A DNA stretch of 32,000 nucleotides, taken from Desulfocapsa sulfexigens DSM 10523 (GTDB taxonomy: Bacteria; Desulfobacterota; Desulfobulbia; Desulfobulbales; Desulfocapsaceae). The stretch is taken from NCBI RefSeq assembly GCF_000341395.1, contig NC_020304.1:810001-842000 (forward strand), read 5' to 3'. Position 1 is the stretch's first letter. Each line of letters begins with the position of its first letter. The notes under the pieces were generated by a model. That model worked only from the letters and a program-made list of their open reading frames with translations. It was not told the origin of the DNA and made no database searches. A program made the translations under genes and the position numbers. Below, in pieces: positions 25,024 to 32,000 of this stretch.

Positions 25024-25365
25024 TTACAAATTACAGGCCTGTTCCAATGCATCCTTTAATTCCGCACTCCACCAAAAAGTCAATGGGGGAGCCCCCCCCT
25101 CTACATTCAGACCAAAAACAATAAAATCATTTTTCCTGGTGGCGACAAAAAAATAATCAGCCCCTTTGGTGGTAACTGATGGTTTGTTTTTATTCTCTAA
25201 TTCGGCACAGGAGGGTTGATACTCCTCTATACGAATTTGAAATTGCTTTTCCCGTTTATTGGTCACAATAGCATGCTGGTGCCTCAGGATAACTGCTGAA
25301 GAGTACCCTGTAGTTATTCCAACAGAAAGAACAAGTAAATAAAGGATCGTTTTTTTCATCTGCAT
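25024..25365 (-). CDS. Small exported hypothetical protein
   Basis: The 113-aa product has an N-terminal signal-like helix (KKTILYLLVLSVGITTGYSSA) and two Cys (..PSCAEL.., ..EQACNL). I recognise no family. Confidence 0.5.
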   Translation of the reverse strand: MQMKKTILYLLVLSVGITTGYSSAVILRHQHAIVTNKREKQFQIRIEEYQPSCAELENKNKPSVTTKGADYFFVATRKNDFIVFGLNVEGGAPPLTFWWSAELKDALEQACNL

Positions 25366-25520
25366 TTCCTTTGCTATTCTTCGATATTATGGTTTACGTT
25401 ATTTTAAGGGTACTCCTTTCCAGGTTTTGTTTTAATAGTACTCCTATACACAATAGAATGGTCTCAAATTATTCGGATTTTAGTCCCTGTTCTTCAGAAC
25501 AAGGAGCATCCTCTCCAATA

Positions 25521-26486
25521 ATGCTAAGGAAACAAGAAAATATGCGACTTTCAACAATCCCAGTTTGTTTTTTGGTTCTTCTCATCATCACTGGCTGTGA
25601 TGCATCAGTTAGTATTGAGACAACAAATCTTAGTGAACCTGCCATGAGTGAAAGGGTTGACCCAGTAGCCATGGCCCCCATTAATCCCGCTGATACTTTC
25701 TTACCTACGGTAGGTACTCTTCACGCAACAATTAAATTAAGCAATGCTCCTTCTGATACGACGGTAACGGTGCGTTTTTATTTTATGGAGCAGGAGAAGA
25801 GAGAAATTGCTCAGGATGCGATAACGACAAACGGTAATGGCTACATAGGTTTTTCCCTGGATCCTCCGAAAAGTGGCTGGCCCGAAGGAAAGTATCAGGT
25901 AGAATTTTATCTGGGAAAAAAGATGAAAGAGATGCTCACTTTCCACATAGAAAGCAAATCGCCGATTATACCAGAATCCACGTTAGCACCCTCCTCAAAA
26001 AAAGAACAGAGCTACAGACTGTTCAATGACAAACAGTTTGGGATGAGTTTTGAATTGCCAGAGAGCTGGAATTTCAAGGTAATAGGTAAAAACAATGATT
26101 ATCTGTTCCAGGGACCTCAGGGTGTTGACGAAGGAGAAATTGTAGTTGTTGTACAGATGATTGATACACGGCAACCACCCCAATCTACCCTGGATGATGA
26201 AATGACAAACCAGTTCAATATGATCAGCCAAAGAGATGGAGCAAAGATTGTTAAAAAAAGTGATTTTCAGGTTGCCGGAAAGAACGCACCCTATTTTCTC
26301 GCAACGTATCCCACACAAAACCAGCAGGATGAACTTGTTTCATGGGGACATACACAATTGGGCTTACAAAATGGGCCGATCATCCTTCTGATCAGTTATG
26401 CCGCCCCAAGAGACATTTATCAGAGTAAGGTTGATCTGTTCCAGCATATGATGGATAGCTTTCGGTTGAGCACACCAAATCCGTAG
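25521..26486 (+). CDS. Hypothetical lipoprotein
   Basis: The lipobox is LLIITGC, following MLRKQENMRLSTIPVCFLVL. The start is ATG 25521 or 25542. The 50-codon extension from 25371 in the ORF track has no signal-peptide logic. Confidence 0.6.
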   Translation: MLRKQENMRLSTIPVCFLVLLIITGCDASVSIETTNLSEPAMSERVDPVAMAPINPADTFLPTVGTLHATIKLSNAPSDTTVTVRFYFMEQEKREIAQDAITTNGNGYIGFSLDPPKSGWPEGKYQVEFYLGKKMKEMLTFHIESKSPIIPESTLAPSSKKEQSYRLFNDKQFGMSFELPESWNFKVIGKNNDYLFQGPQGVDEGEIVVVVQMIDTRQPPQSTLDDEMTNQFNMISQRDGAKIVKKSDFQVAGKNAPYFLATYPTQNQQDELVSWGHTQLGLQNGPIILLISYAAPRDIYQSKVDLFQHMMDSFRLSTPNP

Positions 26487-30700: not shown

Positions 30701-30850
30701 GTCATTTTGGAGATCTTCCTTTACAAAAGTCTGTTTTTCCGCAGCAACAGATAGTGGTGTGGGAGAGAATCCGAAAACTATACTAAGAGCCAGTAAAACA
30801 CTCAGACAGCTGCTGACAAGAGTTGGGCTCTTGTATAGTTGAGCAATCAT
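27707..30850 (-). CDS. 1047-aa exported protein: signal peptide, long K/E/Q-rich helical (coiled-coil-like) region and an aromatic-rich C-terminal globular region of ~400 aa; no recognisable family
   Basis: AGGAGG lies 6 nt before ATG 30850. The ATG overlaps the TGA of the upstream TPR gene (ATGA, 30847..30850). The N-terminus is ..LVSSCLSVLLALSIVFGFSPTPLSVAA|EKQ. The long ORF is uninterrupted despite its low GC. Confidence 0.8.
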   Translation of the reverse strand: MIAQLYKSPTLVSSCLSVLLALSIVFGFSPTPLSVAAEKQTFVKEDLQNDKDTQNDKTTLIISKSEAFKASLKDYNLKSLLTGKSTDVFSDTMHLDALTENLVKGKLDRNAQYIKKLQSEEKQNKQSIKKIRKILKAAKTNPTRFNNLVAAGNTSNSPVNHSKEGKQYIEKQAIAKLKQHNATQKALLEAKNTRSQIVAGHDTYKKVQKTGGVIGRVLSLWDAGQNSYYYDTETKETRFDTGTYLKNAAMNLSGLSGFVNAYQEGQKKGVLVGVYNGAKCIPLASDALNVYELTESSIGIVHDTLESKRIIAENKDEQERQGQVAVSKLKTLFSQIKAKEAEFRRLQQESEEKIKNFDNITKQYTEVFNRSVAREQSLISADSLLEAADKARSFMDAERITTLRDDSEKMMLATATTIKLASTTLEHYQTNGGDPENLDKTIEELKQMVSVLTARKNECDVISSALSPLLGGGKALEGASEQNQQMAADSLIANELYQKGANQLKEHGNIIKRGKTLKIEQDTILAQSKQLLSYFYRNGDPKTKSDLEIAFRNVLQYKIDDYSLSKLDEKQDTISFEFSTWRKSTSITEEIPPDFAIFIQNATSLGSEIAGLGDSLGRSISTTQDFLERLSNPTVLTSDTSPATEKTNQQYLKDEKLFNLSIDDITKQIQFRERGGAIREHAELYCGYQAYKYSETGRLVFGSANKDLCAKELETGIITIVDRSYGKKKNVKYTIWYVKDVITVRGSWVDYYRKKMKLQETIENEIEDYNVQPIKIKNAHDAYIGKLKNPLHNEVRGFAFNFPFYMELDGWVDCIVGENGRFSTGSKDPYNPNLWDNYFGDSPQEKTKLQERMKYWDSRLNSEIADNLDAHMTIPAQMVAFTDKNFLKDVRPLFRGLDGFKGDAKIHLSHEREYRTLKKRWEWGNNIHASITASVNISAEFPDSNESWGSAIQKMHKRLQENKEQYDNKGRIKKLNLPGTDLAYGYSETDSRPLQRGGRSIQAPTQVGNVIFIKKNVRVSIQVYASNIPPNERIDIFGIAQTIISNF

Positions 30851-32000
30851 TTGACACCTCCTAAAAGCCGGGTTTTGACTTTCTCAACATAGGCTCGTAA
30901 AGCACTATCAAGATTTTTGTCGGCCAGAAGACTGAATGCAATTGACAATGCAGCATCTGTTTCCCCCTGTGCTTCCTGAATGGTGGCAATGGTTAACGCC
31001 AAAACATGGTCATCTCCACGTTGCTGTATATCTTGGCGAATAAGTTCAATTGCACGAGTCTCTTTTTGTGAGGAAAAAGCAACAAAGCTCAGCTGTATAG
31101 CAGCAGCTCTTCGCTGATCGACGGGACAGGATGTCATGCGTTGTTCTGCAAGCGCGAACGCGACTTCAAAATTGCGCAACTGATAATACGCTTCCACTAA
31201 ACGAGCCAGGAGCGGATCTTCCGAAAAAGACTCGAACACTGATTCGTACAGATCAATAGCTAATGCAGTTAAACTTGGAGAATTCACCTCCATATAGGCG
31301 TCTGCCAGATCAACGGTAATTCCGTTATTCTCCGGCAAACCAACTGTTGCTTTTTCAAGATAATCGATGGCACTGAAGAGCTTATCACGGTCTTTTTCAA
31401 CTACAGATTCAGCAAACAAATTCGCACCAATGTCATGCCATTCCAGAGCCTTTTCTGCCATATACTGGTCGCTGAGTTCTTGCTCTTCTTCTGCCTTTTG
31501 TTGTGTTGTACTTTGGGTGGGGGATGTATTTATCTGACTCTGTAACCAATCTGCACGGGCCCCCACATTATGGGCATCTGCGGCATTAGGTGCCAGGACA
31601 CAATATTTTTTGTAAGCCAGAGCTGCCTGGTCGTGTACACCCTGTTTTTCCAGCAGGATACCTAGATTTTTGTATGTCAAAGCATAGTTCTTATCACTCT
31701 CAAGAGCCGAAATATATGCCTGCAATGCTTCATCGAATCTTTCGAGCTTACGCATTACCAGACCGAGATTATTTAGTGTCACTAAACTGGTGGGATCTTT
31801 CTTAAGAGAACGAGAAAGAGAAATTCGTGCTTCTTCTAATTTTCCTTCCCGAGCCAATCTGGTTCCTTGCTTTTGTAATTCACCCGCCGTCAGACTTACC
31901 TGGTTTAAGGGTGGCGCAATGTTTTCTTCCGGGGGCAGTAGAAAAGGAGAGCCACCTGTCGTCGCAGAAGGAGAAGAGGCCTCCGATGTTTTTGGAGGAA
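30847..32000 (-). CDS. TPR-repeat protein (partial; the 5' end lies beyond the window)
   Basis: The frame stays open from 31998 down to the stop at 30847, so the TTG at 31857 in the ORF track is not the real start. The TPR motifs include LGLVMRKLERFDEALQAYISALESDKNYALTYKNLGILLEKQG. Confidence 0.8.
   Translation of the reverse strand, partial: PPKTSEASSPSATTGGSPFLLPPEENIAPPLNQVSLTAGELQKQGTRLAREGKLEEARISLSRSLKKDPTSLVTLNNLGLVMRKLERFDEALQAYISALESDKNYALTYKNLGILLEKQGVHDQAALAYKKYCVLAPNAADAHNVGARADWLQSQINTSPTQSTTQQKAEEEQELSDQYMAEKALEWHDIGANLFAESVVEKDRDKLFSAIDYLEKATVGLPENNGITVDLADAYMEVNSPSLTALAIDLYESVFESFSEDPLLARLVEAYYQLRNFEVAFALAEQRMTSCPVDQRRAAAIQLSFVAFSSQKETRAIELIRQDIQQRGDDHVLALTIATIQEAQGETDAALSIAFSLLADKNLDSALRAYVEKVKTRLLGGVK

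Follow-up and report, generated by a model that had tools for sequence, protein, structure and literature searches.

Class II chaperones of type III secretion systems (T3SS) are TPR proteins that pair with translocators, as in IpgC–IpaB, SycD/LcrH–YopB, and SicA–SipB. Other TPR proteins serve as adaptors: NlpI, LbcA, CpoB, LpoA, the TPR region of LapB, and the N-terminal TPR region of Slam are periplasmic or tethered and bridge envelope partners. The Mog1p/PsbP-like lipoproteins (DcrB/DUF1795, N-domain of PA1624) are thought to associate with membrane-anchored complexes (PMC7716261). Here, we analyzed a 32,000-nt stretch of the Desulfocapsa sulfexigens DSM 10523 genome (NC_020304.1, GCF_000341395.1, positions 810,001–842,000 of the forward strand). 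This whole stretch is referred to as the window, and all coordinates are window positions. As read from its sequence, it encodes most of a six-gene exported cassette without an enzyme domain. The six products are a TPR protein, a 1047-aa protein (the giant), a protein with PAN, peptidoglycan (PG)-binding, and SH3 domains (the PAN protein), a lipoprotein, and two small proteins of 111 and 67 aa (s111 and s67). The cassette is real, well delimited, and conserved, and the pair at its center is an undescribed family. We rate it among the periplasmic TPR-adaptor complexes built from binding modules.

By analogy, the closest functional parallel to the central pair would be a TPR chaperone and its helical client, such as the T3SS class II pairs. 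In both cases, an all-TPR gene lies directly upstream of the gene for a large helical protein, its presumed binding partner, and this coupled order is kept. However, both members of the cassette pair have Sec signals or a periplasm-facing topology, no locus contains T3SS or other secretion genes, and the giant lacks the transmembrane hairpin of T3SS translocators and shows no sequence or fold similarity to them. The TPR protein resembles the periplasmic adaptors in its predicted periplasmic or tethered position and its putative bridging of envelope partners, but its partner is a new family of ~1,000 aa and not a protease, a penicillin-binding protein (PBP), or a DUF560 barrel. Membership in the Slam family was not found: TPR_Slam scored at most 25.9 bits against a cut-off of 35.2, and no barrel domain was present in the protein or its neighbors. 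The cassette lipoprotein shares a probable PsbP-like C-terminal domain and a predicted lipid anchor with the Mog1p/PsbP-like lipoproteins; unlike them, it has an extra N-terminal β domain and a fixed convergent SH3/PAN partner gene.

An earlier reading of the window, made without database searches (the sequence-only reading), had described five neighboring genes, and their open reading frames (ORFs) were all recovered, at 25024–25365 (−), 25371–26486 (+), 26491–27495 (−), 27707–30850 (−), and from 30847 onward (−). Homologs moved some of the boundaries. The s111 gene occupies 25024–25359 (−), since relatives of the 113-aa ORF use the ATG at 25359, which gives 111 aa. The lipoprotein gene (314 aa, UWK_00720) was reassigned from a start at 25371 to 25542–26486 (+), because the protein is called as 313–314 aa in all relatives. 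The PAN gene was placed at 26491–27468 (−), with an alternative ATG at 27495; its product is 325 aa in L002 and in L001, a public contig identical to the region (window coordinate = 32749 minus L001 coordinate). The arrangement that had been described held throughout: the s111 and lipoprotein genes are divergent, the lipoprotein and PAN genes converge with their stops 4 nt apart (26487–26490), and, given the PAN start at 27468, a 238-nt gap (27469–27706) separates the PAN gene from the giant gene, which occupies 27707–30850 (−) according to the ORF, homologs, alignments, and structural model. The TPR gene is cut by the window, as no in-frame stop occurs up to base 32000, and was thus incomplete in the sequence-only reading; its true length is 419 aa, including a signal peptide. 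Its start corresponds to about position 32106, so that the start codon, the signal peptide, and a first SPFxLP motif lie beyond base 32000. Also outside the window is the s67 gene (67 aa, minus strand, window-equivalent 32106–32309, L001:440–643), which overlaps the TPR gene start by 1 nt. The cassette is probably UWK_00719–00725, as judged from gene order, with s111 probably being UWK_00719; UWK_00720 for the lipoprotein and UWK_00725 for s67 are confirmed by database names.

The junction between the TPR and giant genes (30847–30862, minus strand) has the form expected of translational coupling. An AGGAGG (30862–30857) is followed by a 6-nt spacer and the giant ATG (30850–30848), which overlaps the TPR TGA (30849–30847); the ATGA overlap at 30847–30850 and the upstream AGGAGG were therefore correctly described in the sequence-only reading. 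The giant–PAN gap contained no conserved intergenic block or element, no terminator-like site, and no Rfam match, and a 59-aa ORF within it is not conserved. A promoter/terminator scan gave about the number of sites expected from shuffled sequence, and tRNA and Rfam scans were empty.

All six genes occur together in five Desulfocapsa/Desulfobulbaceae lineages: D. sulfexigens and those represented by loci L002, L005, L008, and L010/L019. The neighborhood check suggested by the sequence-only reading thus recovered all of its genes, together with a sixth, beside unrelated flanks. The cassettes of the relatives contain the 67-aa gene, a TPR protein of 410–419 aa, a giant of 893–1092 aa, the PAN/PG-binding protein, and the 110–111-aa gene, with a lipoprotein of 312–314 aa on the opposite strand. 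Only the PAN gene shifts. In the window and in L005 it follows the giant gene; L002 has it upstream of the 67-aa gene, and L008 and L010 have it, without SH3, after the 111-aa gene. The six proteins diverge in parallel at 54–76% identity, except for the L008 PAN protein, which is 36% identical and has lost its SH3 domain. The flanks differ in each lineage, with Mem_trans/MFS transporters in the window, GDPD and CARDB/Tricorn proteins in L002, PALP and a response regulator/ABC system in L005, and a TM2-domain protein in L008. Within the searchable literature, there was no paper that mentions these locus tags or this domain combination.

BLAST and hidden Markov model (HMM) dissection showed that the window TPR protein is a fusion of two parts, module N (residues 1–191) and module C (residues ~193–419). 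Module N (31537–32000, minus strand, cut by the window end) consists of a signal peptide, SPFxLP motifs, of which the second (SPFLLPP) lies at 31930–31950, and three canonical TPRs at ~31537–31884; in Pfam it matched TPR_12 with 46.6 bits (cut-off 30.1) and TPR_2 with 41.7 bits (cut-off 27). Module C (30847–31530, minus strand), delimited by alignment, Pfam matches of its members, and its HMM, is a TPR_19/TPR_14-like helical repeat with the motif ITVDLADAYMEVNSPSLTALAIDLYESVF (alignment A5); TPR_19 was matched in 7/7 members (best 1.6e-8), and against PDB profiles only generic LapB/TTC7 TPR similarity was found. Over the TPR region, weak profile matches to NlpI (1e-7), LapB (7e-4), and TPR_Slam (7e-6) all fell under the family cut-offs. 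Each module also exists by itself: module N homologs are stand-alone secreted TPR proteins of 214–245 aa in L012, L013, and L015, and module C stands alone in L011 and others. On sequence grounds, the single polypeptide of the window is a Rosetta-stone fusion that ties the two modules together.

Module C is the sole part of the TPR protein that accompanies every giant-like gene. Its gene overlaps or abuts the giant start in 11/11 loci from at least three phyla, namely the five cassette lineages and L011, L016, L017, L026, L027, and L028. The overlap is 8 nt in L011 (an uncultured planctomycete), 14 nt in L016, 4 nt in L017, and 8 nt in L028 (a metagenome-assembled genome of Victivallales). L026 has a 4-nt overlap and L027 a 2-nt gap; both are contigs of 61–63% GC, and their giants share only a core region of ~180 residues (~215–400). 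The module C HMM matched L026, L027, and L028 with E values of 8e-28, 5e-23, and 5e-89. Between Victivallales and Desulfocapsa, module C retains 50% identity and the giant 32%. What precedes module C varies, from a signal peptide and three TPRs in Desulfocapsa to an LRR in L027 and a Coa1-like domain in L026; in L016, L017, L028, and protein P0040, two transmembrane (TM) helices joined by a K/R-rich loop come first. For these two-TM versions, the positive-inside rule predicts that module C lies outside the membrane, in the periplasm, and the varied protein-binding or anchoring N-termini of module C point to adaptor behavior. In P0040 itself (437 aa, from a metagenome), the two TM helices are followed by just the initial ~30 residues of module C and then directly by the final ~220 residues of a giant with the type A C-terminus described below; this protein either arose naturally, by deletion or fusion, or is an artefact of assembly.

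The remaining part of the cassette can also be separated from the giant. In L012, L013/L014, and L015, a protein with module N is encoded next to a lipoprotein homolog that is convergent with the gene for a small SH3 lipoprotein, and no giant is present. From these comparisons, the cassette resolves into two nested modules, a cross-phylum module C–giant pair and a trio of the lipoprotein, the SH3/PAN protein, and the 3-TPR module. The sequence-only reading had treated it as five exported genes of equal standing; the export signals can indeed be read, and the unit is six genes in two nested modules. The variant cassette at L013:10001–15345 (and L014) comprises a 60-aa s67 homolog, the module N TPR protein, an EEF-tailed SH3 lipoprotein, and the lipoprotein; module C and the giant are replaced by two other exported proteins, one of 512 aa with a PsbP-like N-domain and one of 490 aa that is a glycine-zipper lipoprotein. 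Adjoining this cassette is a divergent exported protein of 1154 aa, which contains a PASTA domain. We considered the 512-, 490-, and 1154-aa proteins as divergent giants and rejected this, as the giant HMM found nothing in them. The s67 protein is basic, lacks a signal peptide, and has only ~10 homologs; those with examined surroundings all lie within these cassettes or the L013-type cassette.

Relatives of the giant are few. A word-indexed search of 5.8 billion proteins returned 5, and an exhaustive HMMER search of 1.84 billion cluster representatives returned 26 clusters at 50% identity, 13 of them at E < 1e-30. An AlphaFold2 (AF2) model built from an 18-sequence alignment reached a pLDDT of 73 and a pTM of 0.42; a model from a 5-sequence alignment (pLDDT 43) was discarded. 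The alignments and the model begin at Ile2, and model residue n is therefore protein residue n+1. In model numbering, the signal peptide is followed by a disordered stretch, two helices of 46 residues each (94–139 and 162–207), a β-hairpin (227–238), a low-confidence segment (255–307), helices of 74, 35, 35, 66, and 38 residues (303–630), and a mixed α/β region (685–1046). If straight, the helices of 35–74 residues would extend up to ~100–110 Å. On the protein, these parts correspond to the signal peptide (residues 1–37, 30740–30850), the N-terminal long helices (residues ~95–225), a conserved core with the motif Y-N-G-A-K-C-I-P-L-x-x-D (residues ~215–321, 29888–30208), the predicted bundle of 35–74-residue helices (residues ~304–631, 28958–29941), and the C-terminal α/β region (residues ~656–1047, 27710–28885), all on the minus strand. 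The description of the giant as a coiled-coil protein in the sequence-only reading thus fits the very long helices at ~95–630 of the model, but not the last ~390 residues, which are modeled as mixed α/β.

The most conserved residues of the giant are found inside or near the low-confidence segment (G272, Y274, G276, A277, K278, C279, P281, G284, D285, E291, L292, V300, D302, T303, S306, I309, E312, and N313). With a 19-residue Kyte–Doolittle window, only the signal peptide exceeded 1.6, and GAKCIPL formed a second peak of 1.0–1.15 in 5/5 members. Separately, residues ~221–239 (~30136–30190, SLWDAGQNSYYYDTETKETRFD) gave weak WW-domain matches (E 0.005–0.02, below the cut-off) in five close homologs only; AF2 modeled this WW-like region as a β-hairpin.

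Conservation of the giant covers its N-terminal ~640 residues, and the C-terminal region is polymorphic. The type A C-terminus (~400 aa) occurs in the window, L008/L010, Victivallales, the planctomycete, and others, and its last ~160–200 residues occur alone in protein P0045. L002 and L005 share the type B C-terminus (~250 aa); the region contains MORN_2 repeats in P0038 and something else in P0037, and the wider superfamily has PKD or Cys-rich C-termini. The adjoining genes are unchanged between C-terminal types. In type A, the conserved residues are mainly Gly, Pro, and aromatics, the only polar ones being K710, E713, N777, and N1015; no His, Cys, Ser, or Asp was found among them.

Searches with the giant returned no characterized relative. 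Foldseek with the full-length model found nothing in PDB at E ≤ 0.001, the best match being a designed helical bundle (E 0.014). PDB profile searches with the giant (alignments A1 and A3) and its C-terminal subdomain (A6) gave no match, and no Pfam match to the ClyA/Hbl/Nhe toxins appeared among 18 members even at E ≤ 1. Matches in BFVD were to long helices only (tail fibres, SMC, tape measure), with TM-scores of ~0.1 and root mean square deviations mostly of 40–70 Å, and are meaningless. A weak Foldseek match to Mog1 in PDB (probability 0.80 over 175 columns) prompted a homology test between the C-terminal subdomain and the PsbP-like domain of the cassette lipoprotein, and this relationship was rejected (hhalign probability 0.1%). 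Like the giant, s111 and s67 had no match in Pfam, NCBIfam, PADLOC, PHROGs, or PDB sequences, apart from a spurious Cas7 match of s111 in PADLOC (E 0.005); PADLOC had no match for the other five proteins. No confident match places the 1047-aa, 67-aa, and 111-aa proteins in a characterized family, and the claim that the locus encodes no enzyme stood, as nothing enzymatic was found for any cassette protein in these five collections.

By their profiles, the accessory proteins are ordinary members of the TPR, PAN, PG_binding_1, and SH3 families, which agrees with the domains that the sequence-only reading had assigned. We read signal peptides, the lipobox, and topology by eye from sequence and hydropathy; the signal peptides end as PSAFA↓EAY in the PAN protein, PLFA↓NSQ in the TPR protein, and LSVAA↓EKQ in the giant. 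The PAN protein contains two PAN domains (27247–27372 and 26986–27105), a PG-binding domain (26770–26934), an acidic EISEEYAEE motif (26674–26700), and an SH3 domain (26503–26622), all on the minus strand. It matched PAN_4 (67.6 bits), PAN_1 (65.4 bits), and PG_binding_1 (50.6 bits) above the Pfam cut-offs; SH3_3 scored 25.1 bits in the window protein, just below its cut-off of 27, and is recorded in homologs. The profiles for this family were PF14295/PF00024 (PAN), PF01471 (PG_binding_1), and PF08239 (SH3). In PHROGs, only PG-binding matches of the endolysin type were obtained.

The window lipoprotein starts with MRLSTIP and has the lipobox IITG-C19-D (I-T-G-C19 with Asp at +2, 25587–25598, plus strand), followed by a β-rich N-terminal domain and a PsbP/Mog1-like C-terminal domain (residues ~157–308, 26010–26465). 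Its own PsbP match is weak (E 9e-4, 19.8 bits against a cut-off of 23.5), and in its family 13/18 members match PF18933 (PsbP_2, best 6.8e-7) and 12/18 match PsbP, with PF01789, PF18933, and PF08786 as profiles of the fold. Its UniRef label is 'DUF1795 domain-containing', 24 homologs were found, and its profile (A4) had no match in PDB. It is probably a PsbP-like family member. Position +2 after the lipobox Cys is Asp or Glu in most of the proteins aligned in A4, and a subgroup (P0021–P0026) lacks a canonical lipobox. In Escherichia coli, Asp or Glu at this position is an inner-membrane retention signal. In s111, a hydrophobic anchor or signal lies at the N-terminus, and two Cys residues (C51 and C109) are conserved; the protein is called as 110–111 aa in all five cassette lineages, with a mean column identity of 75% (alignment A8).

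Two short motifs recur in the trio. EE[FY][AG] is present in 8/8 SH3/PAN proteins and forms the C-terminal end of 6/8 (EEEFAQ, EEEFGQ, EEEFAK, LEEFAQ, KEEFAQ); it is repeated two to three times in the SH3 lipoproteins and is internal (EISEEYAEE) in the window protein. SPFxL[PED] occurs two to three times in the disordered N-terminal part of 7/7 module N proteins, one L008 copy reading SLF. The remaining four protein families of the cassette contain neither motif (checked in L001, L002, L005, and L008). Composition-preserving shuffles gave means of 0.000–0.035 per protein (P ≤ 0.03 to < 0.0002), and these statistics are descriptive only, because the patterns were defined post hoc and the sequences are related. 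Each protein carries a motif that the other's domain type typically binds, which suggests motif–domain wiring between them. Such wiring is familiar from eukaryotic scaffolds and, to our knowledge, hardly documented in the bacterial periplasm. The TPR 'carboxylate clamp' of Hop/CHIP, for instance, binds a C-terminal EEVD. The likeness is that a three-TPR module is encoded beside a partner ending in an acidic–hydrophobic peptide (EEEFAQ or EEEFAK); the difference is that the cassette is bacterial and putatively periplasmic, and that clamp residues are only partly recognizable by eye in its TPR module.

The sequence-only reading had also called the region AT-rich and suggested foreign DNA. GC is 0.411 for 24951–32000 and 0.481 for the rest of the window, and the genome stands at 45.4% (PMC3739170); the cassette is therefore below the genome average (0.411 vs 0.454), but the dip is far smaller than the 33–37% counted on single lines. 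It is also not unique, as two further stretches of the window (3–5 kb and 18–20 kb) are as AT-rich. The second contains a gene for a 610-aa membrane protein with DUF3413 and Sulfatase domains (17918–19750, minus strand; GC 0.415, GC at third codon positions (GC3) 0.41), and because this gene is equally AT-rich, low GC is not peculiar to the cassette. The first contains two overlapping small genes (3400–3639 and 3630–3926, plus strand; GC ~0.40) that resemble a type II toxin–antitoxin pair, with matches to Unstab_antitox (PF09720, E 8e-13) and a ParE_toxin-like profile (E 4e-4, 21.3 bits against a cut-off of 23). GC3 is 0.31–0.41 in the cassette and mostly ~0.47–0.55 (range 0.41–0.71) in other window genes, and the AT bias partly reflects Lys/Asn/Ile-rich proteins. 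Among the other loci, the cassette or pair lies below its flanks in L005 (−6 points), L028 (−8), L017 (−4), and L010 and L011 (−3), but not in L002, L008, L016, L026, and L027. A foreign origin of the cassette is possible, and the patchy phyletic distribution agrees with it; the composition signal is modest and supports it only weakly.

Taken together, we tentatively favor a PG-tethered periplasmic complex that holds the giant, while giving this reading somewhat less than an even chance. An envelope location of the products, probably in the periplasm, follows from their signal peptides and lipobox, from the PG-binding domain, and from the topology predicted for those partner variants that are membrane-anchored. 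As the giant leaves Sec, module C would capture, dock, or chaperone it on the periplasmic side of the inner membrane. The PsbP-like lipoprotein, the PG-tethered SH3/PAN protein, and the 3-TPR module, wired by the EEF and SPFxLP motifs, would use motif–domain contacts to keep the giant complex tethered between inner membrane and sacculus. The long helical bundle of the giant would supply reach, and its exchangeable C-terminal domain would be the ligand- or target-binding end that gives specificity. The envelope assembly proposed by the sequence-only reading is thus supported, and none of the three checks it had set against itself, on profile matches, gene co-occurrence, and windowed GC, came out against it.

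Several observations weigh against this tethered complex. The giant is very rare and patchily distributed, even closely related giants have exchanged their C-termini (type A, type B, MORN, and other), and about half of the loci show GC below that of their flanks. This combination matches accessory 'conflict' or effector genes more closely than it does a housekeeping structure of the envelope. In the available sequence around the pair, the planctomycete, Victivallales, and other distant loci have no lipoprotein, SH3, or PAN genes, and PG tethering therefore cannot be a requirement of the core function. Model confidence is also lowest (pLDDT ~30) where the giant is most conserved, which hints at a conformational switch, as in membrane-active toxins. 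Finally, localization was read from the sequences themselves, and the contacts, the chaperone or docking role of module C, and the tethering function are proposals.

Several of these observations would sit more easily with a secreted toxin or adhesin, the main alternative, which we regard as possible, if doubtful. The giant would then combine a helical membrane-active or stalk module with a C-terminal receptor binder, module C would be its dedicated periplasmic chaperone, much as TPR chaperones serve T3SS translocators, and the lipoprotein, s111, and the PAN protein would hold or neutralize it; exit past the outer membrane would use a type II secretion system or vesicles encoded elsewhere. Its rare, patchy, cross-phylum distribution, the GC under that of the flanks in the window, L005, L010, L011, L017, and L028, the replacement of C-terminal domains (including MORN_2 and PKD types), and the chaperone-like TPR gene directly upstream of the giant all agree with this. 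The architecture agrees as well: α-helical toxins (ClyA/Hbl/Nhe, Vip3, Cry, and TcA of the Tc toxins) are exported ~100-Å helical bundles with β-rich C-terminal binding domains, and the giant has long helices and then a β-rich C-terminus. Vip3, ClyA, Cry, and Tc toxins were among its weak top Foldseek matches, and the conserved, moderately hydrophobic GAKCIPL segment, its second hydropathy peak, falls in a low-confidence part of the model. However, the Foldseek matches are non-significant (E ≥ 0.014, TM-scores 0.04–0.10). For these toxins, E was ≥ 0.02, with TM-scores ≤ 0.07 normalized to the giant and ≤ 0.17 normalized to the toxin and probabilities ≤ 0.25; individually, ClyA gave E 0.05–0.13, probability 0.13–0.25, and TM-score ≤ 0.17, Vip3Bc1 gave E 0.021, probability 0.09, and TM-score 0.06–0.07, Cry and Tc had probabilities ≤ 0.14, and no Pfam match was obtained. 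The Kyte–Doolittle scan revealed no hydrophobic β-tongue or hairpin of the ClyA type, and no segment other than the signal peptide at transmembrane-level hydropathy (maximum ~1.1). Polymorphic toxins (CDI, Rhs, and MafB types) share with the giant a conserved N-terminal region and variable C-termini, but the giant has no known toxin domain, no immunity-like gene co-varies with its C-terminal type, and the downstream families (lipoprotein, PAN, and s111) are the same in type A and type B loci. In addition, no locus contains a secretion-system gene, and module C, which is often membrane-anchored, shows higher conservation than the cargo it is supposed to serve.

Some neighbors of the cassette raise a different explanation, that of an envelope-stress or PG-remodeling adaptor comparable to NlpI/LbcA, CpoB, or LpoA and acting on enzymes encoded elsewhere. 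In this case the TPR, SH3, and PsbP-like proteins would sense or regulate those envelope enzymes, with the giant serving as a regulated substrate or as a ruler. The giant-less trio adjoins an ECF sigma/putative anti-sigma pair in L012 (13840–15530) and a histidine kinase/response regulator pair in L015, response-regulator–HATPase genes adjoin the cassette or pair in L005 (15853–16632) and L011 (6336–7448), MurJ lies two genes upstream of the pair in L028 (625–2163), and the TPR region has weak NCBIfam matches to NlpI, Tgl, PilW, and BepA. We consider such an adaptor unlikely: the TPR matches are generic and far under the family cut-offs, no protease, PBP, or hydrolase is conserved nearby, and the regulatory neighbors recur only loosely and vary by locus. 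The variable flanks, the reduced GC, and a toxin–antitoxin pair elsewhere in the window could instead point to cargo of a mobile element, prophage, or defense island, for example superinfection exclusion or an anti-phage function at the envelope. This seems still more improbable, as 2.9 million viral contigs held no relative, PADLOC gave no match and PHROGs only PG-binding of the endolysin type, and no integrase, transposase, or tRNA adjoins the window cassette, a single IS21 helper gene in L027 being isolated. That there is no system, and that unrelated neighbors merely share export signals, is hardly credible. Most of the genes have no assigned function and the PAN gene shifts position between loci, but six genes co-occur in five lineages with differing flanks, overlapping or abutting start and stop codons are kept in 11/11 loci, and a gene fusion joins the two modules.

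At present, the locus is a delimited and conserved cassette and not a demonstrated mechanism. There is some chance, well short of even, that module C and the giant form an unrecognized cross-phylum envelope machinery, either a helical, switching, membrane-active effector or a periplasm-spanning tether, together with a trio wired by reciprocal motifs. The EEF tail would then bind the TPR module, and the SPFxLP repeats would bind SH3, the WW-like hairpin, or the PsbP-like domain. The giant represents a family without a Pfam, NCBIfam, PADLOC, PHROGs, or PDB entry, with an invariant genetic partner across Desulfobacterota, Planctomycetota, and Victivallales, and the motifs offer a concrete wiring diagram, open to test, for an enzyme-less periplasmic multi-protein assembly. 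With the EEF-tail and SPFxLP motifs, the periplasm would provide a rare example of motif–domain scaffolding in the eukaryotic style. If the giant is membrane-active or target-binding, anaerobic sediment bacteria would have yielded a new effector scaffold; if the giant is a tether, it would be a new way of bridging the inner membrane, peptidoglycan, and the outer membrane.

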